Shown: positions 4,605 to 30,849 of the stretch, in pieces
Position numbering within the stretch: the first letter of the stretch is position 1
Layout of the letters: the number at the start of each line of letters is the position of its first letter
Source of the DNA: Geotalea uraniireducens Rf4
GTDB lineage: Bacteria > Desulfobacterota > Desulfuromonadia > Geobacterales > Geobacteraceae
Assembly (NCBI RefSeq): GCF_000016745.1
Contig: NC_009483.1
Span: 4,350,001-4,382,000, forward strand
Length of the DNA: 32,000 bases
Direction of reading: 5' to 3'
Notes under the pieces: generated by a model
Told to the model about the DNA's origin: nothing
Database searches by the model: none
The model's input: only the letters and a program-made list of their open reading frames with translations
Made by a program: the position numbers and the translations under genes

Positions 4605-5477
4605 TCAGGAGGGGTCAGCATCGGGGCCCCGGATCGGCTCAACGGCCTTACCCGCGTCGACTGCAGCAGCATTTCCGGTTGCAGGCGGCGCCTCCCGCTG
4701 CTCCGTCAAGGGGGCGGGGGATGCTGACCGGATGAATATGTCGATGGCAAGCGGGATCTTCGGGTCCGCCATATCGAGCGCCGCCGTTTCACCAGCTAAA
4801 AGTCCCAGGAGAGGGTCTGACTTGAACGCGCCAATGACGAAGCGCGCCGGAGCCGCCCCCTCGATACGATATTTCCCGTCAACATCGCTCGGGCCGCTCA
4901 GGTAGCGAACACGACCGATCACAGCACCGTCGCTCCCCGGCTCCAGGAGTTGGACAACCGCATTGGCAACAGGACGACCGGCACTGTCGCGAACCAATCC
5001 CGTTAGCGTAACAGGCATCGTTCGTCTGGCAGCAGGTGGTGGCAATTCAGTTACGGTCTGCGTTGCTGCCGCAAGCTGACTGGCGATTATTGCCGTTGCC
5101 TTCAATCTGTAGCTTAAACCATTGCGAACGATGATTTTTTGCGCTTGCGGACCGGTCAATGGCAAGCGGTGGGCCGGATCGGGCTGAGCGGCCCACGTAT
5201 GACCACCGATGCTGATGCCGGAGCCGATCACATATGTCCCCTCCGGCAACGACATGCTGAAGCTGCCATCAGGGGCACAGGAAGCGGCAAATAAAGGCGC
5301 AGCGTAAGGTGATGTGGGCGCTTTGTCGGCCTGGTAGGCGAACACGGCGCAACGCAACGGCTCCTGCTCCGGCGCAAGCTGCCCCGTGACGATACCGCCT
5401 GCATGTGCACAGCTTCCCGTGGCAATCAACCAGAAGGCGAAGAGCCGGGCAAACGAGGATTTCCATGTTGCGTCCAT
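4605..5477 (-). CDS. secreted protein with two carboxypeptidase-regulatory-like (CarboxypepD_reg, Ig-like beta-sandwich) domains and a low-complexity Pro/Ala tail
   Basis: The ORF track gives 4605..5501. I prefer the ATG at 5477 (MDATWKSSFARLFAFWLIATGSCAHAGG, a signal peptide) because GGAAAGGTGGG lies just upstream and it leaves a 14-nt gap after the upstream TGA. Domain motifs: CAPDGSFSMSLPEGTYVIG and VTLTGLVRDSAGRPVANAVVQL...DVDGKYRIEGAAPARFVIG. Confidence 0.75.
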   Translation of the reverse strand: MDATWKSSFARLFAFWLIATGSCAHAGGIVTGQLAPEQEPLRCAVFAYQADKAPTSPYAAPLFAASCAPDGSFSMSLPEGTYVIGSGISIGGHTWAAQPDPAHRLPLTGPQAQKIIVRNGLSYRLKATAIIASQLAAATQTVTELPPPAARRTMPVTLTGLVRDSAGRPVANAVVQLLEPGSDGAVIGRVRYLSGPSDVDGKYRIEGAAPARFVIGAFKSDPLLGLLAGETAALDMADPKIPLAIDIFIRSASPAPLTEQREAPPATGNAAAVDAGKAVEPIRGPDADPS

Positions 5478-5491
5478 AGGCCCACCTTTCC

Positions 5492-8400
5492 TCACGGACA
5501 TGAGCTTTGACCGTTGACGTAGTCCGGCATGGTAATGGTCACCTCGTTGGACGGCGAGGTGATCCCCCCTATCAGCACGGTGTCGTCCAACTCGGTGACA
5601 AGAGTCATGGTTTCGCTCCTGGCAAGATATTGGGAGATCATGCCGTAGTAACCCGGCGCCGCCTGAAATTCGGTATTACTCTGGAACGGCTGCCAACCAT
5701 TCCCCGCGCTATTGGCGACCCAGGCGGTCACTGTTCGTCCGATCCTGGTGATCCGTAACCCACCGGACGTGTTATCGGCATTCGCCCCGTTACAGTAACC
5801 GGTCCCATCCAGCGCCCAGCAGATTTCGTATGCATTGGTCGTCGAGCCGTACCGTCCTATGTAGAAGTAGTTGCTTCGAGTGCCGTCTCCCGCAGTGGCC
5901 GGCATATTGAACTGGAGCCGGGCATAGACGTGGTACTGGTTCCCGGTCACCTCTCCGGCAGGAAGGCGCAACTTCGTGGAGAAATCGAAGTCGCCGAGGA
6001 GTGGCGTGACATCTGATAGAAACAGCCGCGCCGAATTCCAGCTGTTGGCAACGCCGTTTCCGCTCGACGATTCGCTCAAGGTGACCACCCCGTTCGCTGC
6101 AACTATGGAGGAATTGCCGTTCGATGTTGTAAAGTTGAGCGGGGGGGTTTGGGCATCGACCACCGTTAGATTGTTTGCATCCTTCATGGTCACACGTTGC
6201 GACCAGATGGCCGGATTGATCCCGGCCGAGAAATCATCGGCCAGGAGTTTGTAGGGGCGCACACGAAAGATGCCGCTCCCCCCCGCACCAAGCACCCCCG
6301 ACAGTGTGTAACTGTTGGTTCCGTAAGGAATTCTGGCAACGACTCCCCAATTATCTCCCTGCTTGAACTCCAACTGGTAACCGGTCGGAGCGGTGCCACT
6401 CCCGGGTGTGATAGCGAATTGCACCTTGTAAGGGCTCAAGGGTACAGCATTCAATACCGCAGGACCGTAAGGGCTGGTCCCGCCACAGTACTCTGGTCCC
6501 ATTGCCGCCTCACCGGAACTGTTAAAGGCGACTACCGAGTAACAGTACGTGGTGTTGGCAGTGAGGTTGGCAGAGTCGTCATAATCGAAGATTTTCGCCA
6601 CTGGAGACGTACAGGCGATGGTCGAAATATCCGAACCACAGAACCATTCTACGTATGGCACGTTAATGGTAGCTGCGAGATTCTGGTTGGATCCGCTACC
6701 GCCGTCTTTCCTGTAGATCTTATAGCCGGTAGCTCCCTTTACCAGGCGGATTCCTACAGTAATTTGGCTATCGGAACGGGTAATAAGTAACGGCACGCCC
6801 GCCGTGGCTGGAGTTGCAGTAGTGCTCACAGATACCGACGGGGTGGAGTCCCCTCCGGCGTTGACCGCCTTGACCCGATACCAGTAGGTCGTCCCGGCTA
6901 CAAGGCTGCTGTCCGAATAGCTCAACACGTTCTGATTGGTAACAAGTGTCCAGCTGGCATTGTCGGTGGAGCGCTCCAGTTTGTACGTCGTGGCACTGGC
7001 AGAAGGGCTCCAGGAGACGGTTGCCTGGGTGGCGGTAACGCCCGAAATGCCGGTGATCGTCGGGGCAGAGCTGAGCGTCCAGACGGTTTTGATGACCGCA
7101 TCGTTAGACTCGATAGTCTTGCCGACCGACTCCACTTTCACCTGGTACTGGGTGCCGGGGGTAAGACCGGTGATGGTGTAAGGTGGAGGGCTCCAGGAAT
7201 GGGGGGAGGACAACGGTCCGCTCCAAGCGCCGTCGGCCGCTTTTTTGTAGTAGATGTTGTAGCTGTAGGCCTGATCGATACGCCCCCAAGTGACGGTTAT
7301 GGATGAATCGGTGGATGTGGTCGAGACGATGGGTGGTGGTGTCGGCATGGTCTGGACGTAGCCGTCTGCCGGACTGACCGTTTGGGAATCGATGGTGGTC
7401 CCGTAGAAGCTCGTCCGCACGAAAGCCTTAATTCCCGGCCCACGACCGGCGGAATAGGTGTAGCTGCATGTCGCAGTTGCGCATGTCACGGTCGTCTGCA
7501 GCCCCCACCCCGCCCAATAGCCGGGATAGGTTTCCGGTGTGCCGCCAGAACTATACTGGTAGCCGCTCAGATAGACGTCGAAGTTCATCGACGTCGGGAA
7601 GTTCGTGTTGTCCCAGTCGAGTTTGATGGTCGTCGCGGTCGGTGTGGAAAGGGAGAGCGAAGGCTTGGCAGGCGGCGCCTGGGCAGTCTGGCAGAGCTCG
7701 TTTGACCACGCTTCGGCAGGTCCGCCTGCTGCGGTGTAGGCACGGATGCGGTAGCAGTACTGGGTACCGTCGGTCACGGCGGTATCGATCCAGTTCAGGG
7801 TGTTTGCCGCGAGCCCTGTCGCGACCGTTGTCCAGGCACCGGATGGCGGGCGCCGTTGAACGTCGAAGTTGTCTTCGTAGGTGTCGGTCCAGACCGGCCG
7901 GAGCTGGTTGGAGGCCGGGATGTCGATGTTGGAAAGAGTGACCACAAGGGGGGGGAAAACAACGATGCCGTTGCTGTCCACAGAGGTCGTGCCGCCGCTC
8001 TTCGTCCGGACCGAAACGTACCAGCCGCGGTAGTAGGGTGCCAGGACGCCGCCGCCCGTGCCTGAAACGGCATCGGCTGCCATGGTGGCAGAATAAATCG
8101 TACCCCAGCAATAGGTGGCCGGATTGGCGAGGATTGTAGCGATCGAAGCGCTTGCCGCGCAGCTCTTGCCGACCAGATCATACCCGGTATTGCCCGGCAC
8201 CTGGGTCCAGGTGGCAGTGAACGTTGTTGAGGTCAGGGCGGACGCGGACTGAAGAGTCGGCGGGACGAGCGGGGTGGTTACGGACTGCTCCGGTCCCGCG
8301 GCCGGGTTTTCGACCCCGTTATAGCGCGCGTAGACACGATAATAGTAGGTGGTGTTCGGGGTAAGCCCCGTGTCGCTGAAGCTGTAACTGCCCGGATAGC

Positions 8401-11400
8401 CTACAGTTGACCATGTGCCCGCTCCGGTTTTGCGCTCGACCCTGTACCCGTTGGCATCCCAGCTGATGCAATAAATCCACGACAGGTCGATCTGATTGGC
8501 GTTCGGTGCTCCGTAGCTCCACCAACCCGTGACCGGGTTCGGTGCGGTATAGGACGGCACGGAATCAGCCGACGGCAGAGACCAGCCGGCAGAGCTCTGC
8601 ACGGAAAGACGGTAGTAGTAGGTAGTCGCCCGCGCGAGGCCGGTATCGTCGTATGAAGTCGTATTCGCCGCCAGGGTGGCGACGGCCGCATACGTGCCGC
8701 CTGTTCCGGCCTTCCGCTCAAGCAGGTAGCCGGTATTGCCGGCAATGTTGGGCCAGGATATATTGAGCGAGCTCGTCGTTACAGGGTTCGGGTTGGTTGC
8801 AGCCGGCGCAGCCGGTTTCGCCAGGGTGGTGGTGGCGCAGAACTCGTTATAACGGGTAGTAACGGAGTTCAGATCCGCATAGACCCGCCAGCAGTAGGAG
8901 GTGTTGGGAGCCAGGCCGGTATCGACGAAAGAGGCGGCATCCATGGATAGCTTACCGTTGATCGTTCCCGGCGGGTCCACCCATGAACCGGACCCCTGGA
9001 TACTCCGCTTCAGGTATGGAGTGGTGCCCGCAGTCACGTTGGTCCAGGAGAGATCGACCCTGGACGAATCCGCCTCGGCGACAGCCAGCAATGCATTGGG
9101 CATGACGACCAGGTCATTGACGATCTTGAGGGCAAGGAAATTCCTGTCGCCGGCATCGGAGGTGGTGTAGCCGGCGACAAAACCCTCGCCGAACTTGTTG
9201 GCGGCGATCGTTGCGGCATGATCTTCCTTGCCCGCCGTTCCGTTGTAAAGGAATGACTTTACATAGTCGCCGGCGGAGGTGTAGATGGCGGCCACGACAT
9301 CGGTATTAGGGCTTGCGCCGGTATCCCCGGCAATGTAGATGTATCCTGATGGATCGAGGGAGAGACCAGTCAGGACCTCATCGGCGCCGGGACGGCTGAG
9401 TTCCCTTTCCCAGAGGAGGGTTCCCGCGGTATCGTAGCGAAGAAGCGCCAGGTCCCGGTCATTGGCGCCGCGATAGGCCTCACCGGCGACCACGATCTCA
9501 TTGTCGAAGCTGTCATAGGCGATCTTGCGGGCGGCCGAATTGCCTGCTGCCATCCCCGCCGGGTAGGTCCTGACCCAGCGGCGGTCGACTGCTCCGGTCG
9601 CCCCACCCAAATATTTGATGACCACCATGTTCGTAAAACCGGTCGGGACGTCGGTGACGTAGCCGGCCACGTAAACGTCGCCGGCAGCGTCGATGGCAAG
9701 CGACAGTGCCCGGTCATTGCCGCTGCCGCCGTAGGTGTCGCTCCAGAGGACAGCGCCGGTGACGCCGTCCAGCTTGGCGACAAACCAGTCGTTATTGCCG
9801 GCAAGGTCGACCCGGCCGGCGACAAACACACTTCCGGCTGCATCAAGGGAGACGGCTGCGGGATATTCATTGCCCCCCAGATGGCTTTGAGCCGTAAAAA
9901 CAACCGTGCCTGTTGCGGAGAGCTTTCTTACGTAAAAATCGATGTTCGAGAGGTCTGCATTGCCGTGACCGGTGACGGCAACGGCGTACGGCGCGCCCCC
10001 CTGAACGGCCACCGCATCGGCATGGTCTGAAAGCCGGCCGGCGCCGTTCAGCTGATCGGTCCACGCTGGAGTCGCCTCAAGCACTCCGTCGATGGTGGGT
10101 GAAAACGGGTACTTGTGGGTCCAGACCGAAGGTATGTTGCCCGCGCCGGGGACGCTCTGGCTGGAGGTGCCGGTCATGACGGCTTCAAGGTTCTGATCCA
10201 CGGCAATAGCCACTGCATCGTCATCTTCGTCGTACCCCCCGTCGCGGCGGTCCTGCCAAAGCACCTCGAAGGTGCCGCGCTTAAGCTTTACCGTATAGTA
10301 ATCTTTGGATGGATTGCCCATAAGGTTCTGGTCGGCATGAATAGTACCGGTGAAGACCACCGATCCCCCCGAGAAGCAGGCGGCATCAATAGCCTGATCA
10401 TCCCCTCCGGCCGGATCGGCGTAGACATAGGTAAGCGCCGGTGAGGCGAAGGTGGCGACCCTGGTGAGGGCGTTTGCCTCTCCGGAAAGGTCGCCGTTGC
10501 CGGAACCGTCGTAAGCCTTGACCCGGAAGTAGTAATCGGTGTCGGGGAGAAGCCCCGTCACGTCGAAGTTGACGACACCGGAGCCTGGCTGGTCGGGGGT
10601 CGGTATCGTGTAAGCGTCCTGGCTCCAGGCCCCGTTTTCGCCGATCTTTATGTCCACCTTGAAACCAGTCTCGGTTTCGGTGTTGTCGAGGAAGGAGAGC
10701 TGCACCGACGTATTGCTCAGCACCTGGGTGGCGAGGCCGGTCGGCGGGTCGAGCACCCCTTTGTCCTGGCGGAGCACCACGTAGTCGATGTCGTCCTGGT
10801 CGTAGAGATAGTAGAGATCGCCGCTCGCCACGACGTAGGGGAGCGCCTGGGATGCGGCGAGGGTAATGGTTGTGGCGTCGTTCCCCTGGATGCGACGAAA
10901 GATGTCCTTGTTCTGACTGCTGACCATGTATAGGGTGTAGCCCGCCCATTGGTCCGCGGTCCACGACTTATTCCCGTTCTGCAACGAGGTCTTGGACCCG
11001 CCTGTGGCGGCCTGCGTCCCCCCGTCGAGTGGCTGCGTCCGGTCAGTCCAGACAGCAGTCACCACCCCCTGCCCCGCGAGGCTGATCCCCACCGGGCGAG
11101 AGCTGTTGCCGATCACCCCGCTCCATTCCCTGTCCCAGAGGAGCCGCCCGTTCTTGCGGCTGAACTTCGCTGTTACGACCTTCTTCACCCCAACATAGTC
11201 GCGCCACCCTGCGACAAAGACTCCGCCCGCCGGATCGACCGCAAGCGCAGAGGCCCCGGATGCATTGATCGACCCGGCATCGTAGGTACTGCTCCAGACG
11301 GTGTCGGGGACTGCAGTCCCGTTCTTGTGGTATTTGACGACGAAAAGCTTTGAAAATGCCGGAAGGACCCCGGCCGTAGCAGCGACATAAACGTCTCCCG

Positions 11401-12352
11401 CCGGATCGACGGTCACAGCGGCCGGCTGATCGTCGAAGCCGGCATCGTAGACAGACTCCCAGACAGGTGTCGCGGAGCCCGGCACCAGTTCTGCGGTATA
11501 GAGATCATCCCCGCGGCCGTTGGTCAGGTAGCCTGCGACCACCACATTTCCTGCAGGCGTAAAGGCGAGCGCCGTGCCGCGATCGTTGTAGGAACCGGCG
11601 CCACTCTTGGGCCAGACACGAAGCTGGTTGCCGGCAGCGTCCCAGAGGAGAGTGACCAGATCCAGGTCGGTGCCGTTGGACGACTCGCCGGTCAAGGCTA
11701 TTCCGTTCCCGTCCGACGAAACAGCGACGGCGTAAGCGAGATCGGTCCCGCCGGCATCATAGGTCTTCGCCCAGAGCGGCGGATTGTCGCCTGTCACAGT
11801 GTTATCGAAGGCGAGCAGCAGACAGTCGTCATTGCTGCCGTTGTTTGAATAGCCGGCCACATAAACCCGGTCGTTGACCGGATCGTAGACCACCGCCTGG
11901 GGGATATCGGCTCTCCCGGCCGTGCCGGACCAGGTCCTGCTCCAGACCACCATTGGGGTATTTGTCCCGTTGTCGCGGTAGCGGACCACGTAAACGTCGT
12001 AGTTGCCGGCATTCATGACGCTCGCCGCAACGATCGCGTCGCCCGACTTGTCGATCGTCACCGCCACCCCTTGGTCACTGCCGCCTGCAATGTCATAAGC
12101 GGCCCGCCAGACAACCGAACCGTCGGCCGCGTACTTGACCGTGTAGACGTCGTCATTGCCGTCGCCAGCCAGGCTCTGGTAGCCGGTAACGACCGTTGAC
12201 CCGCTGGCCGGCACGATCGACGCAGCGCGCGCCTCCTGCTTTCCCTTGCGGGAGTCCATAAGCGGATGGCCTGTGAGGTCAGCGCCCCCGCCCGCCAGAA
12301 CCGGCGTAGCCAGGACAAGTAAGATGGCTATGGATGTAATGAGTCTTCTCAT
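5492..12352 (-). CDS. giant (2286-aa) secreted protein: SBBP-like beta-propeller block, FN3, second beta-propeller block, about 10 FN3-like domains, C-terminal concanavalin/LamG-like domain
   Basis: The ORF track gives 5492..12517. I trim the start to the ATG at 12352 (MRRLITSIAILLVLATPVLAGGGADL, a signal peptide, with GGAGAA 7 nt upstream). The longer form would overlap the upstream gene by 151 nt. Propeller blades repeat a pattern such as DPAGDVYVAG(Y)...(D)D..VVKY...G...W. FN3 domains carry T(T)YYYRV/TQYCYRIRAY-type F-strand motifs. Approximate layout in nt: propeller 1 at 10756-12270, FN3 at 10460-10755, propeller 2 at 9125-10455, FN3 array at 6250-9100, lectin-like domain at 5495-6250. 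Confidence 0.85.
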   Translation of the reverse strand: MRRLITSIAILLVLATPVLAGGGADLTGHPLMDSRKGKQEARAASIVPASGSTVVTGYQSLAGDGNDDVYTVKYAADGSVVWRAAYDIAGGSDQGVAVTIDKSGDAIVAASVMNAGNYDVYVVRYRDNGTNTPMVVWSRTWSGTAGRADIPQAVVYDPVNDRVYVAGYSNNGSNDDCLLLAFDNTVTGDNPPLWAKTYDAGGTDLAYAVAVSSDGNGIALTGESSNGTDLDLVTLLWDAAGNQLRVWPKSGAGSYNDRGTALAFTPAGNVVVAGYLTNGRGDDLYTAELVPGSATPVWESVYDAGFDDQPAAVTVDPAGDVYVAATAGVLPAFSKLFVVKYHKNGTAVPDTVWSSTYDAGSINASGASALAVDPAGGVFVAGWRDYVGVKKVVTAKFSRKNGRLLWDREWSGVIGNSSRPVGISLAGQGVVTAVWTDRTQPLDGGTQAATGGSKTSLQNGNKSWTADQWAGYTLYMVSSQNKDIFRRIQGNDATTITLAASQALPYVVASGDLYYLYDQDDIDYVVLRQDKGVLDPPTGLATQVLSNTSVQLSFLDNTETETGFKVDIKIGENGAWSQDAYTIPTPDQPGSGVVNFDVTGLLPDTDYYFRVKAYDGSGNGDLSGEANALTRVATFASPALTYVYADPAGGDDQAIDAACFSGGSVVFTGTIHADQNLMGNPSKDYYTVKLKRGTFEVLWQDRRDGGYDEDDDAVAIAVDQNLEAVMTGTSSQSVPGAGNIPSVWTHKYPFSPTIDGVLEATPAWTDQLNGAGRLSDHADAVAVQGGAPYAVAVTGHGNADLSNIDFYVRKLSATGTVVFTAQSHLGGNEYPAAVSLDAAGSVFVAGRVDLAGNNDWFVAKLDGVTGAVLWSDTYGGSGNDRALSLAIDAAGDVYVAGYVTDVPTGFTNMVVIKYLGGATGAVDRRWVRTYPAGMAAGNSAARKIAYDSFDNEIVVAGEAYRGANDRDLALLRYDTAGTLLWERELSRPGADEVLTGLSLDPSGYIYIAGDTGASPNTDVVAAIYTSAGDYVKSFLYNGTAGKEDHAATIAANKFGEGFVAGYTTSDAGDRNFLALKIVNDLVVMPNALLAVAEADSSRVDLSWTNVTAGTTPYLKRSIQGSGSWVDPPGTINGKLSMDAASFVDTGLAPNTSYCWRVYADLNSVTTRYNEFCATTTLAKPAAPAATNPNPVTTSSLNISWPNIAGNTGYLLERKAGTGGTYAAVATLAANTTSYDDTGLARATTYYYRLSVQSSAGWSLPSADSVPSYTAPNPVTGWWSYGAPNANQIDLSWIYCISWDANGYRVERKTGAGTWSTVGYPGSYSFSDTGLTPNTTYYYRVYARYNGVENPAAGPEQSVTTPLVPPTLQSASALTSTTFTATWTQVPGNTGYDLVGKSCAASASIATILANPATYCWGTIYSATMAADAVSGTGGGVLAPYYRGWYVSVRTKSGGTTSVDSNGIVVFPPLVVTLSNIDIPASNQLRPVWTDTYEDNFDVQRRPPSGAWTTVATGLAANTLNWIDTAVTDGTQYCYRIRAYTAAGGPAEAWSNELCQTAQAPPAKPSLSLSTPTATTIKLDWDNTNFPTSMNFDVYLSGYQYSSGGTPETYPGYWAGWGLQTTVTCATATCSYTYSAGRGPGIKAFVRTSFYGTTIDSQTVSPADGYVQTMPTPPPIVSTTSTDSSITVTWGRIDQAYSYNIYYKKAADGAWSGPLSSPHSWSPPPYTITGLTPGTQYQVKVESVGKTIESNDAVIKTVWTLSSAPTITGISGVTATQATVSWSPSASATTYKLERSTDNASWTLVTNQNVLSYSDSSLVAGTTYWYRVKAVNAGGDSTPSVSVSTTATPATAGVPLLITRSDSQITVGIRLVKGATGYKIYRKDGGSGSNQNLAATINVPYVEWFCGSDISTIACTSPVAKIFDYDDSANLTANTTYCYSVVAFNSSGEAAMGPEYCGGTSPYGPAVLNAVPLSPYKVQFAITPGSGTAPTGYQLEFKQGDNWGVVARIPYGTNSYTLSGVLGAGGSGIFRVRPYKLLADDFSAGINPAIWSQRVTMKDANNLTVVDAQTPPLNFTTSNGNSSIVAANGVVTLSESSSGNGVANSWNSARLFLSDVTPLLGDFDFSTKLRLPAGEVTGNQYHVYARLQFNMPATAGDGTRSNYFYIGRYGSTTNAYEICWALDGTGYCNGANADNTSGGLRITRIGRTVTAWVANSAGNGWQPFQSNTEFQAAPGYYGMISQYLARSETMTLVTELDDTVLIGGITSPSNEVTITMPDYVNGQSSCP

Positions 12353-12366
12353 GTCTCTTTTCTCCG

Positions 12367-15300
12367 TCACTCGCTGTAGCTGCGCGGCGGCGCAAGGCTC
12401 GGCCACGGGGTCACGTTGTTCCACATGTTCTCTTGCGGCCACTGGTTGGGAATCGCCGGCTGGATGCCATTCACGTACGTCGGCGAAATGGTGATGTCGG
12501 CGCGCCGCAGATGACACTGGGTGTATGCCTCGTACTTGTATCGGTCAGCCATATAGGCCGGATCGCTGGTGAAGATTTTGCTGTTGATGATCCCGCCGAT
12601 CGGGTAGCCCCAATGGCCGCCAGTCCAGTCGGCGCGGCTCCCGGAAAGGATGTCGGCCGCAGAAACCTTGCCGCCGGAGGCGACCCGCCCCCGGTGCTGG
12701 TAGTCGAGACAGTTGGTCACCATGAGCCGCGGCAGGGCAGATGAGTGGGGCTGGTGACACTTTGAACAGGTAAACGAGTGTTCCGTATTCGCCCCCCAAC
12801 CCTTGACCGATTCGTGCATCCGGTCGCGCGATTTCCAGTCGGTGTTCTTGTTCACCCCGTCGGTCAGCTTCCGCTGCTGGTGACAGCGCAGACACAAGCC
12901 GGCAAACTGCTTGTCGCTTTCCGCGATCCGGTTCGTGTTGAAGGTGTTCCGGTCCGTGTTCCAGCCGAGCAGCACGGGTACGGTCGGCTTTCGGTTGTCC
13001 CAGCCAAGCTGCGTTGATCCAGCCCCGGCGCCGAAGTATCCGCCCCATCGGTAGGGGGGGGAGGCGATACCGCCGTTGGCGCTGGGTGGAGGTGCATCTT
13101 CCTTGTAGGGGTTGGTCATCCAACTTCCCTTGAGGAGCGGCACGGCATAAGGCATCTGTTCGCCAAGGGTCGGAGATACCCCGTGCGGGTCATGGCATGG
13201 CGTGCAGAGTCCGTTGATCCGCTCGTGACTCGAGTAGTTGAGCATGCTCGAAGCGGAGAAGTGGGTCCCGGCGACCGTTGTCTTGCGGAACGGGAAACGG
13301 GTGTAACGCCCTTTGGTCCCCCCGCCGAAGCGCGGGCTGTCGTCGTACCCCATGACCGCCTGGCTGGCGCTGTAGGTCGACTGGTATCCCCACGGCCTGG
13401 TCGACGAGGCGTTCTGGTTCTCGTGACAGTCGAAGCACTGGCCGGCGCCTGCAGCGTACAGGTTCTTGCCGGAAACGTTCCCCTGGGCCATATAGGTGGC
13501 GCCGTATCCACCCTTGCCGTTCTGGGTTTCCTTGAGGTTGGCGCCGTTACGCGTATTATTGAATGTCACATAGCTGGAGGTGGTGCCGTTGACTTTCGAG
13601 CCATGGGAATTGTGGCAGTCGTAGCACTGGATGTTTCCCCCCGCGCCCCTCGTGTTCGGCGGCGCTGCGTCGTAACCGTCGGCAGCGTTCCACCCCCCCT
13701 GGTTGGCGGCTGCGTTGCCGTGTGCCGAGAACGCCTTGACGACAGTGTCCTTTTTGTTGGCATTGGGATAGGTACCGGAATTCACCTTCCCCCAGGTGGT
13801 CGTTCCCATCTGGGCGTAGCGGGCAGCGATCGACTGGCCGTCCCAGGCATACTGACGCGGGGTCTTGCAATCACCGAACGGGGTCGTGTCGTTGTTCTGA
13901 TCGGAGTGACAGGAGAGGCAGTGGTTGGTCAGTTTCGCCACTTCTGTCCGCTCGTTCGCCGTGGTGACCCGGTTGGCGAGAAACTGGACCGCCGAAGTGC
14001 TGCTGTAGAAAGTCGGTCTTTCTCCCGGCCGCCAGACCACCAGGTCGACCTTGGCGTCTTTTACCCCCGAGTAGGTCCTGAAATCGAATCCCTCGTGACG
14101 GTTCGTGTCGATCGTTCCGAACGAGGTCGCTTCCCAGTGGCAGGCGTAACACTGCCGCCCGGTAAGCGCCACACCAGGGTTCTGGACGTGGTGCGAGTTG
14201 CTGTTGAACTGCCCGACCACGTCGGCCCTAGCACCAATGGAGCCGGCGTGACACTTGACGCAGATGACCGGCAGACCGAAGGCCACGTGCTTGGGCACCG
14301 GCTTGGCGTTGGTGTGGCAGGTGTTGCAACTCTGAGAGTCGGCATGGGCATCGGCAAAACGGTGCATGTGACAGCTGGTGCATATCTTGGTCGCGTTGTG
14401 GCCGTCGCTGAAGTTGCTCAGATAATGCTTGGAATCCGGGCCGTGACAGACATTGCAGATCTTGTTGGAGGCACCTGCATAGTCGCTACCCTTTGTCTTC
14501 TGGGTGAAGGAGACGGCCGCCCGCGCCTGGGGTACGCCGTATTTCCCGTCCGTAGTGGTCGCCACCTGGCTCTGAATCATATAGATGTTGTCGTCGCCGT
14601 GGGGGTCATGACAGTCCCAGCAGAATTTCCCCCCCTTCCACGTCCCCAGAAACTTGCCGTTTGCATCCTTCGCCCACCCTCCCGAGTTGATGAAGGCACC
14701 GTAATGCTTCTTGCCGAAGTGGGCGGCCGAGGCCCGCGCCTTTTTCGGCTTGATGAAGCCCGTGCCTGGGTCGAAGCCAAGGGAATATTTACCGGGGTTG
14801 TCCGACGGCGCCGTGTGGCAGAAGATGCACTGTCCGCCGGAGTCGTCGTCGTGGCACTGCAGACAAACGCCCATCATGACGTACTGGCTCTTGATGTCGG
14901 CCTTATGGGTGGTATTCCAGCTACCGGCACCTGTTGAGTGCCCCTTATGCCCCCCCGATGGCGCGAAAACCCCGTCATCCGAGTCATGGCAGCCGGACGT
15001 GGTGCAGGAATCGAGATAACCGTGGCTGGTCCAGTCGGTCCGGGTACCGCCGGAGCGCAGTTTCACAACGATCCCGCCTATAGTCGCCTGGGGCGCCAGG
15101 CTCTCAAGTTGCCCCACATGACATTGTATGCACTCATAGTCCTTATGCTCCATATGGCAGTATACGCATTCTTTCTCGAAGCGCTGCTCGTACTGCGTGT
15201 GCCTCTTGAGCCGGAACGGATTCGACCCCTCTCCATGGATAACCGTATTGTCGTGACAGTACCAGCAGGGATTGCTCGGGAAGTTGGCGGCCGGGTTGTT

Positions 15301-17442
15301 CGACCCCGGATAACGCCCGGCCGTCGAATAGCGGCCATGGCCGGTAGACACCCACTGACCGAGGTTGATCCTCGCCATGGTCCCGTTGTCGAAACCGGCA
15401 AAGGTGTCCAGGTCAGGCCCGGCAGTGCCGTGACAATTGAGACAGATAATGCTCGAATTGACCGACGCCCCCCACTGGGGATCAGTGGCGCCGGTATGAC
15501 AGCGGGTGTTGGAGCAGGTCTTGTTGGTCGGGCGGTACGAGCCGCCGGCGTTGAATATGACGTCCCGCGTTTTGTTCACGTGGTAGGCGGGATTGATGTG
15601 AGCCGTTTCCCCCATGTTCCCGGTCGGCAGTCCCCCGGCGTGACAGGTTTTGCAGTCGCCGTTGATAACAGTTGCTGCATGGCAGTTGCCGCAGGTGAAC
15701 GAGGTGCCGGTATGGCGCGGATGAGAGTTGGCGCGTGGCTCCCCTGCACCCTCGTTATGGAAGATCGGCATCGCCGCCCGCCATTCGGTGCCGGTGGACC
15801 AGCTGGTGAAGACCGGCCAGAACTTGCCGTCGTGGCTGGCGCCGTCATGGCAGCCGTTCGCGTTGCACGTTCCGGTAATCGGGTGACCGTGACAGGCGTT
15901 GCAGCGCGACCATCCCTTATTGGGCCAGCTCGGCTGCTTCACTTCCGCATCGAGCGGGTTCACTGTGCCGTCCGAGTGGCAATAGACGTTGCTGCAGCTA
16001 CGGGTGGCCGGGTCGTAGGATGGTGCAGGGCGACCGGCAATGTTCCACTGGGGATCGACCGCCACCTGCTTGGTCCCGTCGGCATGTATGGTCAGGGCCT
16101 TGATGGCGCCGGCCGCAGTCACCGTCTGATAATGGCAGTAACTGCACGGATACTTCCTGATCCATTGGGGTCCGACATGTTTGGCATGTGCGTTGGTGGA
16201 GATGTTCACGAACGGTGTGCAGACACCGTTATCTCCGTTCCAGGCGCCACCGATCTCGGTGCAATTGTCATAGGTCGAATCGACCGTCAACCCTCGATGG
16301 CAGTAAAAGCATTTGTAGGGACCCTGATCGCTCCAGGACGGCGTCTTGAAGCCCGGACGGCCAAGGGCGTTCGAATGGCAGTAGGTGCTCGTGCACTGTT
16401 TTGAGCCTGCGGTGTAGCTGCCGCCATCCTTAAAGGAGACATCCTTCTCCCCATTGACATGCTTTTGACGGTCTGTGATCATCGCTGAACCGGTGGCGGT
16501 CGAGTTGTGGCACTTGTCGCAGACGTATTGGTAATCCTTGGCGTGCCTGTCATGGCGGGGACTCATGGTCACGGTATCGCTGTTCCCGCCGTGGCAACCG
16601 GTACAATCGAGCGACCCGCCCCAGGTCGGAGCGGCAAAGGTGTTCACCCGGCCGGCAGGGTTACCGTTCGAATGGCAGTAAATATTGTTGCAGCCGCCTG
16701 TTCGTCCCGTGCTTTGCGACGGCAGGTAAATGGGATAATCCACATTGCCGGAGTACGAGCCGCCGCTGTTGGGGGAGGTCAGAAACTGCACGGCCAGCGC
16801 TCGGCGGCCTGCGCTGGTGGCGTGGGAAAATGAGGTGTGCACGGGATGGCATTTGCCGCAGCTGTTCTCGTCTACGCGGTAATAGTCGCCATGTTTTTTA
16901 CCCGACCCGCTCTGGGAGGGATGGCTTCCGTCGTCAGGCGGCAAACCGTGGCAGGCATTGCAACCGGACGGAGCTTCTAGTAGCTGGTTTCCCCATTCCG
17001 GAGTGCTCTTTTCAAAGTGACAATTGACATTGGCACAGCTGCCGAGGGTCGGATTAGGCGTTTGGGGAAAAGGGGTGGTCCAGTTGCCAAATGATGAGGT
17101 GCGGTTTTTATATACCGCATTAACGGGGGAATTATTGATATTGCTGGAAAGCTTGATCAGTCCGTCACGATGGGAGGAGTTGTAGCTTTCGCTTCCCGGA
17201 TGGCAAATGGCGCAGTTTGCCGGCCCGGCATACGCAGGGAGGTGGGTGCGGTGCTTTCCCTGGAAGCCGCCGGTCGTAATATTCCGGTAACTATCTTCCA
17301 GCGGCCGGAAATCGGCGGTTTTCTTACTCCCGTGGCAATCGTAACAGGAAATCGACGCCTCCGCCACGCTACCCATAACCGTCATCGCCAGCAGCAACAT
17401 CAGTATGCGGTTACATATCCGCCTCAGCTTATTGTCGATCAT
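12367..17442 (-). CDS. giant (1691-aa) secreted multiheme c-type cytochrome, about 36 heme-binding motifs
   Basis: Signal peptide MIDNKLRRICNRILMLLLAMTVMGSVAEA. By hand I count 29 CXXCH motifs and 7 CX4CH motifs (CANVNCH, CNNIYCH, CTSTYCH, CSNVYCH, CNANGCH, CSNTRCH, CTTSGCH). The CX4CH...CXXCH pairing matches the Geobacter CxxxxCH...CXXCH domain family (TIGR01904) as I recall it. The TGA at 12367-12369 lies 14 nt before the next ATG. Confidence 0.9.
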   Translation of the reverse strand: MIDNKLRRICNRILMLLLAMTVMGSVAEASISCYDCHGSKKTADFRPLEDSYRNITTGGFQGKHRTHLPAYAGPANCAICHPGSESYNSSHRDGLIKLSSNINNSPVNAVYKNRTSSFGNWTTPFPQTPNPTLGSCANVNCHFEKSTPEWGNQLLEAPSGCNACHGLPPDDGSHPSQSGSGKKHGDYYRVDENSCGKCHPVHTSFSHATSAGRRALAVQFLTSPNSGGSYSGNVDYPIYLPSQSTGRTGGCNNIYCHSNGNPAGRVNTFAAPTWGGSLDCTGCHGGNSDTVTMSPRHDRHAKDYQYVCDKCHNSTATGSAMITDRQKHVNGEKDVSFKDGGSYTAGSKQCTSTYCHSNALGRPGFKTPSWSDQGPYKCFYCHRGLTVDSTYDNCTEIGGAWNGDNGVCTPFVNISTNAHAKHVGPQWIRKYPCSYCHYQTVTAAGAIKALTIHADGTKQVAVDPQWNIAGRPAPSYDPATRSCSNVYCHSDGTVNPLDAEVKQPSWPNKGWSRCNACHGHPITGTCNANGCHDGASHDGKFWPVFTSWSTGTEWRAAMPIFHNEGAGEPRANSHPRHTGTSFTCGNCHAATVINGDCKTCHAGGLPTGNMGETAHINPAYHVNKTRDVIFNAGGSYRPTNKTCSNTRCHTGATDPQWGASVNSSIICLNCHGTAGPDLDTFAGFDNGTMARINLGQWVSTGHGRYSTAGRYPGSNNPAANFPSNPCWYCHDNTVIHGEGSNPFRLKRHTQYEQRFEKECVYCHMEHKDYECIQCHVGQLESLAPQATIGGIVVKLRSGGTRTDWTSHGYLDSCTTSGCHDSDDGVFAPSGGHKGHSTGAGSWNTTHKADIKSQYVMMGVCLQCHDDDSGGQCIFCHTAPSDNPGKYSLGFDPGTGFIKPKKARASAAHFGKKHYGAFINSGGWAKDANGKFLGTWKGGKFCWDCHDPHGDDNIYMIQSQVATTTDGKYGVPQARAAVSFTQKTKGSDYAGASNKICNVCHGPDSKHYLSNFSDGHNATKICTSCHMHRFADAHADSQSCNTCHTNAKPVPKHVAFGLPVICVKCHAGSIGARADVVGQFNSNSHHVQNPGVALTGRQCYACHWEATSFGTIDTNRHEGFDFRTYSGVKDAKVDLVVWRPGERPTFYSSTSAVQFLANRVTTANERTEVAKLTNHCLSCHSDQNNDTTPFGDCKTPRQYAWDGQSIAARYAQMGTTTWGKVNSGTYPNANKKDTVVKAFSAHGNAAANQGGWNAADGYDAAPPNTRGAGGNIQCYDCHNSHGSKVNGTTSSYVTFNNTRNGANLKETQNGKGGYGATYMAQGNVSGKNLYAAGAGQCFDCHENQNASSTRPWGYQSTYSASQAVMGYDDSPRFGGGTKGRYTRFPFRKTTVAGTHFSASSMLNYSSHERINGLCTPCHDPHGVSPTLGEQMPYAVPLLKGSWMTNPYKEDAPPPSANGGIASPPYRWGGYFGAGAGSTQLGWDNRKPTVPVLLGWNTDRNTFNTNRIAESDKQFAGLCLRCHQQRKLTDGVNKNTDWKSRDRMHESVKGWGANTEHSFTCSKCHQPHSSALPRLMVTNCLDYQHRGRVASGGKVSAADILSGSRADWTGGHWGYPIGGIINSKIFTSDPAYMADRYKYEAYTQCHLRRADITISPTYVNGIQPAIPNQWPQENMWNNVTPWPSLAPPRSYSE

Positions 17443-17796
17443 GCGCCCCCCACTATAAGCCTCTCTGCCCGGACCATTTACGGTTCTGCAAATGTCGTCA
17501 GATATAGGCCCACAAATATATATAAAATTTAATATTATTTATAACTAATTAACAAATATCACGATGTTACAGTTTTCATTAAACATAAATATTTAGGTTT
17601 TTGCCCTGAAAATGGCATCCACAAACGCGGCATAAAGCAGGATTTAGCGGAGTCAATTTCCCTGTGCGTGAAATAACCGCCTGGAAATGCGTGCATCGTT
17701 TACATATCGCAGTCTTACACGGTAATAGATGCAATATTAAAACCATTTATGAAGTTAGTTGGACGGGTCACCGAAGAGAGCCGGCGTTTGGGGGGA
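17443..17796 (-). promoter_or_regulatory. 354-nt non-coding region upstream of the cytochrome gene with an extremely AT-rich core, presumed promoter/regulatory region
   Basis: No credible ORF. In 17521-17600 I count 12 G/C out of 80 nt, set in an otherwise GC-rich locus. I found no convincing terminator after the tsaB stop at 17797. I could not assign specific -35/-10 elements. Confidence 0.4.
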
Positions 17797-28034: not shown

Positions 28035-28093
28035 CAAGGGACCATGCCGTGGTTTAATTGGCGAAGGAGTTAAGCGTTGAAAGGAGTCCGACC

Positions 28094-29023
28094 GTGATAT
28101 CCCGTTTCATCGTTTTTTTGATCGTTATTACACTTGCGACTTTCCAGCCGGTCTTCGCGGCAAAGGGCAAAAAAGTGGCCCAACGGGCTGCTGCACAAAA
28201 GACGCCCGCCCCCCCGGAAGAGCAGAGCCCTCCCATCAACATCCTGAGCATCATCCCTGCCCAGGGTGAGCCGGGGGTAACCGTAACCCTCAGCGGCACT
28301 GGATTTACCGACAAGACCACTGCGTTTCTTGGTGGTGTCGGTATGCCGACGAAAGTGATAGGGCCCAAAATACTTACCTTCGACATACCCGATCTCCCCC
28401 CCGGACTCTATGCTCTCTTTTTAAGGCGGGAAGATGGAGCTACCAGCAAACCGTATAACTTTATACTACAGGCGCAAAAGCCGGTGGCGATGTCACTGTC
28501 GCCCGACACGATATACAATTGTGCCAGCGGGAAGGAGCGCGAAGTGGTTGTCAGTGGTCGGAATTTCCAGGAAGGGGCGCAGATCCTGCTGGACGGAGCT
28601 GCGATCAAAAGCCGCACTCTCTCGCGCGAATCCATTTCATTCAACGCTCCATCCCAGCTCTTCAGCGGACTCCACCAAGTGCAGGTGAAAAACCCTACGG
28701 ATGAAGTTTCCGGTGCGGTTGCCCTTTTCATCAATTCCAAGCCGGAGATTCTAAGCGTTAGTCAGGGGGGAGAGTTCGTCAATTACTATGAACTGATTAT
28801 CGAAGGGAAAAACTTTCAGCAGGGATCGACGCTCGTGGTGGATGGCGCAAATCTTAACAGTGGAACAGCACCCGCCACCGAACGTGAAAAGATTGTTTAT
28901 ATTGACTGCACCCGCCTCATTTACCAACGCCACCCGTACGACTCGACCCCGAAAAGCTTTAGTCTCCAGGTGATAAATCCAAACAGCGAGGAAAGCCCGG
29001 TAGTAACGGTGAATGCTCCGTGA
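28094..29023 (+). CDS. secreted protein with three IPT/TIG (Ig-like fold) domains
   Basis: The ORF track gives 28058..29023. I prefer the GTG at 28094 (MISRFIVFLIVITLATFQPVFAAKGKK, a signal peptide) with AAAGGAG 7 nt upstream. There are three IPT-like units: ILSIIPAQGEPGVTVTLSGTGF, the unit starting at VAMSLSPDT that contains EVVVSGRNFQEGAQILLDG, and PEILSVSQGGEFVNYYELIIEGKNFQQGSTLVVDG. Confidence 0.75.
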   Translation: MISRFIVFLIVITLATFQPVFAAKGKKVAQRAAAQKTPAPPEEQSPPINILSIIPAQGEPGVTVTLSGTGFTDKTTAFLGGVGMPTKVIGPKILTFDIPDLPPGLYALFLRREDGATSKPYNFILQAQKPVAMSLSPDTIYNCASGKEREVVVSGRNFQEGAQILLDGAAIKSRTLSRESISFNAPSQLFSGLHQVQVKNPTDEVSGAVALFINSKPEILSVSQGGEFVNYYELIIEGKNFQQGSTLVVDGANLNSGTAPATEREKIVYIDCTRLIYQRHPYDSTPKSFSLQVINPNSEESPVVTVNAP

Positions 29024-29586: not shown

Positions 29587-30327
29587 TCACTCCCCGCCGA
29601 ACCAGATGGTCGTGTATCGGCTGAAAATGGAAAGATAATTGGTAAAAATAAGAATGCCGACGATGATCAGGAAAACCCCGGTAACGATCTCGAAGATGCG
29701 GATGTACTTTTTGAAACGGGTAAACAGGACAAGAAACTGGTGCATGGCCAATGAAGCCAAGAAGAACGGGATGGCAAGCCCCATGGAATAAGCAAGCAGC
29801 AGCCCTATCCCCCGATAGACGGTACTCTCGGTAGCCGCCACCATCAGGATCGAGGCGAGTATCGGACCGATGCAGGGAGTCCAGCCGGCGGCAAAAGCCA
29901 CGCCGACGACAAAACTGCCGAAAAAGCCGGCCGGTTTACGATGGAGGGTCAGCCGTTTCTCCCCAAGCAAAACCCCGATATCGAAAATTCCCGACACATG
30001 GATACCGAAAACAACGATGAGAACACCACCCACCCTTCTTAACGCGGTCATGTGCGCCTGGAGGAAACCGCCGATAAAGGTTGCAGAAGCACCGAGCAGA
30101 ACAAAGACAAAGGTAAAACCAGCGATAAAAAGGAGCGAATGGATAATCGTCTGCTGCCTGACCTTGTGAGACGGATGCTCCATCTGCAGGTCGCTGAAGG
30201 AAAGGCCGGTTATATAGGTGATATAGGAAGGAATAAGGGGGAGCACGCATGGTGAGAGGAACGAGAGAAAGCCCGCGATGAACGCTCCGACAACGGTTAT
30301 GTTGGTGGATTCCATGGTTCCCCCCAT
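29587..30327 (-). CDS. ccdA: cytochrome c biogenesis thiol-reductant transporter CcdA (DsbD transmembrane-domain family)
   Basis: Polytopic membrane ORF with FLSPCVLPLIPSYITYITG and ...AAGWTPCIGPILASIL, the two conserved Cys motifs of CcdA/DsbD-beta. The start is either the ATG at 30327 or the ATG at 30315. Confidence 0.88.
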   Translation of the reverse strand: MGGTMESTNITVVGAFIAGFLSFLSPCVLPLIPSYITYITGLSFSDLQMEHPSHKVRQQTIIHSLLFIAGFTFVFVLLGASATFIGGFLQAHMTALRRVGGVLIVVFGIHVSGIFDIGVLLGEKRLTLHRKPAGFFGSFVVGVAFAAGWTPCIGPILASILMVAATESTVYRGIGLLLAYSMGLAIPFFLASLAMHQFLVLFTRFKKYIRIFEIVTGVFLIIVGILIFTNYLSIFSRYTTIWFGGE

Positions 30328-30336
30328 TATTCCCTA

Positions 30337-30849
30337 TTACATCTGCGGCTTCATGATCTCATTGAAAAAAGCTACCACCTGCGGATCACTCCAATCCATA
30401 CCGCCAACAACTTTTTTTACTATAACACCCTTTTTGTCCAATATAAAGGTTTCCGGTACCCCGGTAGTTCCATAGCGTTTACTGATCGCCTGGTCGGTAT
30501 CAAGGAGTGCCGGCAACGCCGCCCCCGAATTCTTGAAAAATCGCTTTACAGCGTCCTTACCCCCCTCATCGATGGATACGGCCAGCATTTGGAAAGGTTT
30601 CCCGGCCATCATCCGATCCAGTCTGACCATGGACGGGATTTCTTCACGACAGGGAGGACACCAGGTCGCCCAGAAATTGAGGAAGACAACCTTCCCCCTG
30701 AAGTCCGAAAGGCGTACCTGACGGCCGGCTAAATCCTTCAAGGTGAAATCGGGCGCCACCTTCCCTTCTATGACCGGCTCCTCCTGGCGGGAACAACCGA
30801 TAACCGCAACACTAAATAAAATCATCACAGCAAAAATAATCTTTTTCAT
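30337..30849 (-). CDS. TlpA/ResA-like periplasmic thioredoxin-fold thiol:disulfide oxidoreductase, lipoprotein
   Basis: 170-aa ORF. MKKIIFAVMILFSVAVIGCSRQ contains a lipobox (VIGC). The active site is FWATWCPPCREEIP. Its ATG overlaps the upstream stop (ATGA). Confidence 0.88.
   Translation of the reverse strand: MKKIIFAVMILFSVAVIGCSRQEEPVIEGKVAPDFTLKDLAGRQVRLSDFRGKVVFLNFWATWCPPCREEIPSMVRLDRMMAGKPFQMLAVSIDEGGKDAVKRFFKNSGAALPALLDTDQAISKRYGTTGVPETFILDKKGVIVKKVVGGMDWSDPQVVAFFNEIMKPQM

Follow-up and report, generated by a model that had tools for sequence, protein, structure and literature searches.

The CxxxxCH/CxxCH domain of c-type cytochromes has long been represented by curated TIGRFAM and Pfam models, dating back to the first Geobacter genome. 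PDB sequence searches with the whole protein described below and with a profile of its repeat module returned no TIGR01904 domain of solved structure, and experimental haem loading in the TIGR01904 family was not found in the literature, as far as searched. The CX4CH motif itself is a proven haem site in Desulfovibrio cytochrome c3. Furthermore, it carries covalent haem in haem 3 of hydrazine dehydrogenase (HDH) as seen by structure (PMC6469936), is haem-loaded together with CX3CH in Methanosarcina MmcA according to peptide mass spectrometry (PMC11024163) and is listed among the known haem-binding motifs (PMC11492766). These three proteins share the attachment motif with the cytochrome analyzed here, but they represent unrelated families with one or two CX4CH each, whereas here the motif occurs once per repeat module.

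Tandem three-haem modules within one chain, with the order H..H–CXXCH–H–C..CH–CXXCH, are found in cytochrome c7 and GSU1996, and c7-concatenated wire cytochromes have been described (PMC2996986, PMC11492766). Compared to c7, the modules of our cytochrome comprise 100–118 aa instead of ~70 and their middle haem motif is CX4CH. Other non-canonical motifs within multihaem cytochromes are those of MccA (CX15CH) and NrfA (CXXCK). System II lyases dedicated to non-canonical haem motifs exist, and specialised ones such as NrfI are encoded in the operon of the substrate, nrfHAIJ (reviewed in PMC12285233).

We analyzed a window of 32,000 nucleotides from Geotalea uraniireducens Rf4. The features of the cytochrome gene as a whole were:

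12367..17442, minus strand: multihaem c-type cytochrome, complete ORF of 1691 aa (ORF list, translation, motif count, matches to TIGR01904, PF09698 and PF14522)
17356..17442, minus strand: probable Sec signal peptide, residues 1–29, MIDNKLRRICNRILMLLLAMTVMGSVAEA followed by S, without lipobox (read off the translation)
12370..14985, minus strand: C-terminal half of the cytochrome with 14 CXXCH, no CX4CH and several CXXCHxxH (motif map)

The protein contained 29 CXXCH and seven CX4CH, 36 motifs in total. The first Cys of the CX4CH motifs was located at residues 136, 251, 350, 483, 526, 643 and 813. As stated in a sequence-only reading of this DNA, all seven lie within the N-terminal ~815 residues or so (residues 136–819), and this half carries 22 haem motifs, namely 15 CXXCH and seven CX4CH; both peptides quoted there were found in the translation. 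Residue shuffling (n = 20,000) yielded a mean of 0.19 and a maximum of five CX4CH, so seven is far above chance. CXXCK or C(X5–19)CH was present nowhere in the 1691 aa, which separates the cytochrome from MccA and NrfA. The hallmarks of c-type cytochromes were evident from the 36 motifs with a proximal His, the signal-like N-terminus and the conserved candidate distal ligands (41 His and 6 Met outside the motifs). Judged by eye from the translation, the N-terminal sequence is a probable Sec signal peptide. A lipoprotein anchor was considered and rejected; around the cleavage region there is a single Cys, the one that opens the haem motif CYDCH. Residues 848–1691 matched the Pfam models Paired_CXXCH_1 (61.2 bits), Cytochrome_C7 (42.5) and Cytochrom_c3_2 (36.6). 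An Rfam scan of the window including the region upstream of the cytochrome gave no match, and a scan for promoters and terminators performed no better than on shuffled sequence.

With a probability of about 70%, we regard this region as the N-terminal half of a secreted ~36-haem cytochrome of the Geotalea/Geobacter type, an array of modules in which the CX4CH would be genuine haem sites served by a general synthase.

The whole cytochrome matched TIGR01904 in five stretches with 139.6 bits (E 2e-41, cut-off 27); the family had been named correctly in the sequence-only reading. Scores against PF09698 and the Pfam c7 model PF14522 were 51.5 bits (cut-off 21.7) and 81.3 bits (cut-off 24.8), respectively. 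The cytochrome is therefore a direct member of the TIGR01904/PF09698 family with no essential difference. A 'CxxxxCH/CxxCH domain c-type cytochrome' of Geotalea toluenoxydans was 75% identical, a G. metallireducens cytochrome 52%. The G. daltonii homologue (55% identical) is annotated as 'cytochrome c, 37 heme-binding sites'. Since it contains 29 CXXCH, one CX3CH and six CX4CH, the annotated total can only be reached if motifs other than CXXCH are counted. No entry identical to our cytochrome was present in the protein collection searched. The CX4CH multihaem repeat is already known and annotated in close relatives. To find it here re-identifies a known domain family whose annotators already count CX4CH as haem sites, and changes little. 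It would, however, set the haem count of this cytochrome at 36 and not 29.

Alignment of the repeats revealed five tandem three-haem modules of ~100–118 aa in the N-terminal half, here named M1 to M5. Two further CX4CH and several CXXCH were located between and after them:

16918..17265, minus strand: module M1, residues 60–175, CAICH/CANVNCH/CNACH (module alignment; the part containing CX4CH scores 41.9 bits with TIGR01904)
16558..16917, minus strand: module M2, residues 176–295, CGKCH/CNNIYCH/CTGCH (module alignment; TIGR01904 46.8 bits, PF09698 32.2 bits)
16267..16557, minus strand: module M3, residues 296–392, CDKCH/CTSTYCH/CFYCH (module alignment; TIGR01904 53.4 bits)
15877..16230, minus strand: module M4, residues 405–522, CSYCH/CSNVYCH/CNACH (module alignment; TIGR01904 46.3 bits)
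15403..15729, minus strand: module M5, residues 572–680, CGNCH/CKTCH/CSNTRCH/CLNCH (module alignment; TIGR01904 44.4 bits)
15847..15867, minus strand: orphan CX4CH CNANGCH at residue 526, outside the canonical TIGR01904 unit (segment without TIGR01904 or Pfam match)
14986..15006, minus strand: orphan CX4CH CTTSGCH at residue 813, the most variable site (segment without TIGR01904 match)

The layout of the modules is distal His(es)–CXXCH–distal His–CX4CH–PxW–CXXCH, with H..H preceding the first CXXCH. H, CXXCH, CX4CH, P.W and CXXCH were invariant in the five aligned modules, and the loop CxNxYCHS was strongly conserved. This defines a clean three-haem module, e.g. residues 405–522. Seven repeat units had been proposed from the letters alone. 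Five of them, around the CX4CH at 136, 251, 350, 483 and 643, each exceeded the TIGR01904 cut-off (41.9–53.4 bits vs 27), but the segments around 526 and 813 did not match and fall outside the domain model. The same division applied to the CXXCH that was expected 20–35 residues downstream: in the five units it follows 24–31 residues from the first Cys, at 526 and 813 only after 58 and 47 residues, respectively. One of the five units ends in CHR instead of the proposed CHG, and a fixed W....C spacing did not hold because the distance from Trp to Cys varies between units.

Structure prediction, which had been suggested as a check, lent no structural support. The AlphaFold2 model of residues 28–880, based on a 51-sequence alignment, was poor (pLDDT 60, pTM 0.40) and Foldseek found no match to it in the PDB. 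Module M4 alone was modelled from an 80-sequence alignment with a pLDDT of 74.5; here Foldseek returned only matches with E > 2 to unrelated proteins. Searching the PDB sequences with the whole cytochrome by phmmer gave a chance match only. Likeness to the nanowire subunits OmcS, OmcE and OmcZ was detected neither among the PDB sequence matches nor by Foldseek with these weak models. Concerning the c7 proteins, single N-terminal modules aligned with nearly the full PF14522 profile at 16.3–23.3 bits, below the cut-off of 24.8; M3 aligned end to end with 23.3 bits, slightly under it. GSU1996 or PpcA did not occur among the PDB sequence matches of the cytochrome or the module profile, and hhalign of the module alignments with PpcA, for which an approximate sequence was used, was not significant.

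The best match to a solved structure was cytochrome c554 of Nitrosomonas europaea (1BVB, 1FT5, 1FT6). The 80-sequence module profile retrieved 1BVB with an E value of 1.3e-6 and 31.9 bits. Profile positions 16–103 aligned with c554 residues 9–94, the three-haem N-terminal part, with matching spacing of the three motifs and CX4CH placed on CXXCH. The likeness is weak and was not recovered by Foldseek; moreover, c554 is a single four-haem protein having CXXCH where the module has CX4CH. The second CXXCH of c554, which binds the five-coordinate haem II, is the motif aligned with CX4CH. By analogy, the canonical CX4CH could be loaded while the middle haem of each module is special, i.e. five-coordinate or ligand-binding instead of a simple wire element. 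That c554 was the sole significant solved-structure match and that the CxNxYCHS loop is so strongly conserved would fit such a haem. Yet each module holds three conserved non-motif His, so that every one of its three haems could be bis-His ligated, and the c554 match at 31.9 bits largely reflects motif spacing. We consider a special middle haem very unlikely. More probably, most haems at CX4CH sites would be bis-His coordinated, and the modules would line up their haems as a long intramolecular electron-transfer wire.

The conservation of the sites was analyzed in an alignment of the cytochrome and 100 homologues (101 sequences). For all 36 motifs, the His was retained in every one of these homologues that has the segment, and the same columns switched between CX4CH, CX3CH and CX2CH without loss of the His. 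Among the 101 sequences, site 136 was CX4 in 88 and CX2 in 9, site 251 was CX4 in 95 and CX3 in 5, and the orphan site 526 was CX4 in 72 and CX2 in 25, whereas the CX4CH of M4 was conserved in 101 of 101. Conversely, 16 and 5 homologues had CX4 at the sites 597 and 1039, respectively, where our cytochrome has CX2. Site 813 showed Cys–Cys spacings between 2 and 11 among the homologues; CX4 was present in 60 of 101 sequences.

A natural indel of 98 aa (residues 263–360), missing from 62 of the 101 sequences, takes out exactly CTGCH, CDKCH and CTSTYCH together with exactly three non-motif His. Overall, 21–22 conserved non-motif His were counted for the 22 motifs of the N-terminal half. As a test, this His balance is loose, since the C-terminal half combines 14 motifs with 20 conserved His outside them. 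Over 120 homologues, the His count rose by 2.17 per motif (r 0.95). A regression with separate terms for CXXCH (2.65) and CX3–4CH (0.50) was rejected as uninformative; it is uninterpretable since modules add both motif types together and the types swap at fixed sites.

These patterns bear on the proposal that some or all CX4CH are structural disulfides or metal-binding Cys/His clusters, which would leave ~29 haems. The location of the orphans 526 and 813 outside the canonical unit and the poorly conserved spacing at 813 would agree with it. Against this, no homologue that has the site lacks the His behind the second Cys, homologues carry CXXCH at the same columns, the one-module indel removes as many non-motif His as motifs, counting the CX4CH, and the module profile places CX4CH on a haem-binding CXXCH of c554. 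We regard a non-haem role as extremely improbable. Instead, every CX4CH is likely to be a covalent haem c site, in which the two Cys would form the thioethers, the following His would serve as the proximal ligand and the loop would be slightly longer.

With respect to maturation, the absence of a lyase gene from the window, as noted in the sequence-only reading, was borne out. Pfam scans of the window ORFs gave no match to PF01578 or PF05140, and neither family was a neighbour in three annotated related loci. A CcsA/CcmF-type WWD signature, searched with an approximate motif, was present neither in the window nor in 82 related loci covered to about ±10 kb each, 1.56 Mb in all. The window does encode proteins that correspond to the thiol-reduction arm of cytochrome c biogenesis:

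29587..30849: ResA-like thioredoxin and CcdA-like membrane protein (Pfam scan)

The CX4CH sites could also be loaded by a specialised CcsBA/ResBC paralogue whose gene lies in another part of the genome, in analogy to Wolinella CcsA1 (CX15CH) and NrfI (CXXCK). Geobacter genomes carry several ResB/ResC paralogues, a point in favour of this idea, and the CX5–CX11CH seen at the site-813 column as well as the CX6–7CH at the site-643 column in some homologues might need special handling. System II lyases dedicated to non-canonical motifs are a precedent, but those of the NrfI type sit in the operon of their substrate (PMC12285233), while beside the cassette, in the window and the 82 related loci, and among the annotated neighbours no lyase signature was found. 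In addition, MmcA has both CX4CH and CX3CH loaded (PMC11024163). Furthermore, CX2, CX3 and CX4 replace each other freely at a given site in close relatives, which argues for a tolerant general enzyme; in this respect, as in the lack of a lyase gene in the window and the related loci, the cytochrome differs from MccA and NrfA. Altogether, a specialised lyase appears unlikely. The earlier concern that CX4CH might be unloaded or need a dedicated lyase thus found no support, given the switching of columns with the His kept, the indel, the missing WWD signature and the precedents of HDH and MmcA. Judged from these comparisons, haem attachment at the CX4CH sites seems to be of the ordinary kind, without need of special machinery, and the sites would be matured by the general cytochrome c synthase of the organism.

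Downstream of the cytochrome gene a giant protein is encoded:

5492..12352, minus strand: secreted protein of 2286 aa with SBBP β-propeller repeats and many fn3 domains (Pfam scan)

Its start lies 14 nt past the cytochrome stop and is preceded by a GGAGA ribosome-binding site. The gene is predicted to be a co-transcribed partner of the cytochrome gene, and the cytochrome probably works with this surface protein in extracellular or cell-envelope electron transfer. The neighbours of the cytochrome locus were the giant β-propeller/fn3 protein, a CarboxypepD_reg protein and housekeeping genes; among them no adjoining gene for a porin-like β-barrel or a periplasmic cytochrome was present, as it would be in a porin–cytochrome conduit. 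A description of the pairing of a cytochrome with a giant fn3 protein was not found in the literature. We tentatively suggest, with more doubt than confidence, that the cytochrome and the >2000-aa SBBP β-propeller/fn3 protein form an undescribed obligate two-protein apparatus of the cell surface. Here, a monomeric ~36-haem 'wire' might be mounted on or delivered by an adhesin-like scaffold, as an extracellular electron-transfer route distinct from porin–cytochrome conduits and OmcS/E/Z filaments. If functional, the pairing would add a novel device for extracellular electron transfer to those of metal-reducing bacteria.

In all 71 evaluable related loci, the cytochrome gene was immediately followed by a homologue of the β-propeller/fn3 gene. 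The pairing spans Geobacterales, Desulfuromonadales, Nitrospirota and Desulfobulbia MAGs and occurs in several distinct gene neighbourhoods; in two relatives both genes overlap by 7 nt.

The cytochrome of 1691 aa is encoded by the following ORF:
17442→12367, minus strand, cytochrome ORF, with 15000–17442 as its 5' half

Motif counting over the whole protein gave 29 CXXCH and seven CX4CH motifs, while CX3CH, CXXCK and longer Cys spacings were absent. The CX4CH motifs start at residues 136, 251, 350, 483, 526, 643 and 813, which are used here as site numbers. The stretch bearing them also contains 15 CXXCH, resulting in the 22 motifs which an earlier sequence-only reading had counted for the N-terminal half. 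Since 20,000 residue shuffles of the cytochrome yielded a mean of only 0.19 CX4CH, the seven observed motifs are not due to chance. Of 37 Cys-His dipeptides, 36 fall inside a haem motif. The remaining one, Cys1643-His1644 (window 12511-12516, minus strand) near the C-terminus, was kept in 100 of 101 sequences (the cytochrome and 100 aligned homologues) and has no second Cys between positions −3 and −6. This dipeptide may attach haem through a single thioether, or it may act as a ligand. Among the homologues, Cys394 and Cys408 (window 16219-16263, minus strand) were either both present or both absent, which suggests a disulfide. The N-terminus has the appearance of a Sec signal peptide without lipobox.

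The assignment to TIGR01904, made in the earlier reading, was confirmed by profile search with 139.6 bits (E 2e-41, cut-off 27) in five stretches. Pfam PF09698 scored 51.5 bits and Cytochrome_C7 81.3 bits in eight stretches of the whole protein. When the seven CX4CH-bearing segments were scanned one at a time against TIGR01904, those around sites 136, 251, 350, 483 and 643 each exceeded the cut-off (41.9–53.4 bits) and those around 526 and 813 gave no match. Thus, the seven CX4CH motifs do not form seven regular units as initially proposed, but belong to five canonical units and two orphan sites. Among the scored candidates, 629 homologues were found at E ≤ 1e-5. They included an unnamed assembly protein (92% identity), a Geotalea toluenoxydans "CxxxxCH/CxxCH domain c-type cytochrome" (75%), "cytochrome c, 37 heme-binding sites" of G. 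daltonii FRC-32 (55%) and a G. metallireducens cytochrome (52%). The G. daltonii protein carries 29 CXXCH, one CX3CH and six CX4CH, hence annotators had already included non-canonical motifs as haem sites. The cytochrome is an ordinary member of an already known and annotated family.

Within the N-terminal half five three-haem modules, here named M1 to M5, were aligned:
M1, residues 60–175, three-haem module
M2, residues 176–295, three-haem module
M3, residues 296–392, three-haem module
M4, residues 405–522, three-haem module
M5, residues 572–680, three-haem module

Invariant across all five are a His, a CXXCH, the CX4CH, a P-x-W and a second CXXCH. A further His is located about 22 residues ahead of each CX4CH, and it is this residue that is carried by the strands HVNGEKD and HVNKTRD noticed previously. 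Single modules matched the Pfam cytochrome c7 profile nearly end-to-end with 16–23 bits, below the cut-off of 24.8. The best solved relative of an 80-sequence module profile was cytochrome c554 (1BVB, E 1.3e-6), with three haem motifs in register and CXXCH where the module has CX4CH. Searches of the PDB sequences with the protein and the module profile recovered no TIGR01904 domain of known structure. AF2 models reached a pLDDT of 60 for residues 28–880 and 74.5 for M4 alone, and neither gave a usable Foldseek match in the PDB. This does not count against the haem interpretation, since both AF2 and Foldseek have difficulty with haem proteins that contain little secondary structure and are modelled without their haems.

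The earlier reading had doubted whether the CX4CH sites are loaded with haem. Four comparative lines argue that they are haem sites and leave this doubt unsupported. First, a MAFFT alignment of the cytochrome and 100 homologues, each 1400–1800 aa long, showed the motif His to be retained at its column wherever the segment was present. Second, the Cys spacing switches among CX4, CX3 and CX2 at one and the same column: CX4 in 88 and CX2 in 9 sequences at site 136, CX4 in 95 and CX3 in 5 at site 251, CX4 in 72 and CX2 in 25 at site 526, and CX4 in 60, CX3 in 10 and CX2 in 5, besides CX5–11, at site 813. Conversely, the CX2 sites 597 and 1039 are CX4 in 16 and 5 homologues, respectively. Such interchange with canonical motifs would be expected of alternative haem-attachment loops, and not of a disulfide or metal site. 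Third, residues 263–360 (98 aa, window 16363-16656, minus strand) are missing from 62 of the 101 sequences. This block contains exactly the motifs CTGCH, CDKCH and CTSTYCH and exactly three non-motif His (297, 300 and 328). This number equals one candidate distal ligand for each motif, also for the CX4CH, and the family accordingly changes in length by whole three-haem steps. Longer relatives reach 2724 aa and up to 58 motifs. Fourth, the 22 motifs of the N-terminal half are matched by 21–22 conserved His outside the motifs, with the caveat that the C-terminal half has 20 such His for 14 motifs. In 120 homologues, whose motif number ranged from 26 to 58, total His increased by 2.17 per motif (r 0.95); separate terms for the motif types are confounded in this regression. 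Outside this family, Desulfovibrio cytochrome c3 is a known carrier of haem at CX4CH. CX4CH was also demonstrated to bear haem in hydrazine dehydrogenase (PMC6469936) and, by peptide mass spectrometry, in MmcA (PMC11024163), and is listed as an accepted haem motif (PMC11492766).

In some homologues the column of site 643 (window 15496-15516, minus strand) reads CX6 or CX7CH and that of site 813 (window 14986-15006, minus strand) CX5 to CX11CH. Such long spacings are within the range reported for other organisms as needing special lyases.

Family-profile scans of the window ORFs found no cytochrome c synthase gene, in agreement with the earlier reading. The WWD signature of CcsA, CcmC and CcmF had no match when the window and 82 related loci (1.56 Mb in all) were searched in six-frame translation, and ResB or CcsA families were absent from the Pfam-annotated neighbourhoods of three homologues. 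A specialised synthase paralogue may be encoded elsewhere in the genome. However, dedicated lyases such as NrfI sit in the operon of their substrate, here nrfHAIJ (PMC12285233), and CX2, CX3 and CX4 interchange freely among the homologues. The missing lyase signature in the scanned loci and this interchange favour maturation by the general synthase, and the special machinery suggested earlier for CX4CH found no support. Two adjoining genes lie some 12 kb away from the cytochrome ORF:
29587–30849, minus strand, lipoprotein thioredoxin and CcdA/DsbD_TM-type membrane protein

The thioredoxin has a WCPPC motif and is ResA/TlpA-like, its best match being ResA with 123.7 bits, below the curated cut-off. 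Together, they correspond to the branch of the cytochrome c biogenesis pathway that reduces thiols (PMC12285233).

Starting 14 nt past the cytochrome stop and preceded by a GGAGA ribosome-binding site, the next gene (5492-12352, minus strand) encodes a giant protein of 2286 aa with a signal peptide, SBBP β-propeller repeats and many fn3 domains. A third gene for a 298-aa CarboxypepD_reg protein follows, which is not conserved among the related loci. These comprised 79 loci from one-genome-per-species contigs and those of G. toluenoxydans, G. daltonii and G. metallireducens. In all 71 loci with enough downstream sequence a giant-protein homologue (>2000 aa) was encoded directly after the cytochrome gene on the same strand. 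The cassette is flanked by ilvD and ilvB on one side and by tsaB, rseP, dxr, cdsA, uppS, frr, pyrH, tsf and rpsB on the other. G. toluenoxydans has the same housekeeping flanks, with the cassette likewise between tsaB and ilvD. The flanks of the G. daltonii and G. metallireducens cassettes differ, yet the pair is kept, and its two genes overlap by 7 nt. Overall, the pair occurs in several different flanking contexts, and several genomes carry two or three cassettes. The literature searched held no description of this pairing. According to a survey from 2024, this class is predicted to have long "wire" cytochromes that are monomeric, and only GSU1996 among them has been characterised (PMC11492766).

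The G+C content of the cassette (window 5000-17500) was 0.60–0.63 compared to 0.52–0.55 for the flank from rpsB to tsaB. This difference may stem from insertion or relocation of the cassette, or merely from the cassette's Gly/Ala/Thr-rich composition. Finally, another probable surface protein is encoded at window 28058-29023 (plus strand), between lptG and the CcdA-like gene. It has 321 aa and contains IPT/TIG domains as well as "choice-of-anchor Z" repeats (77.8 bits).
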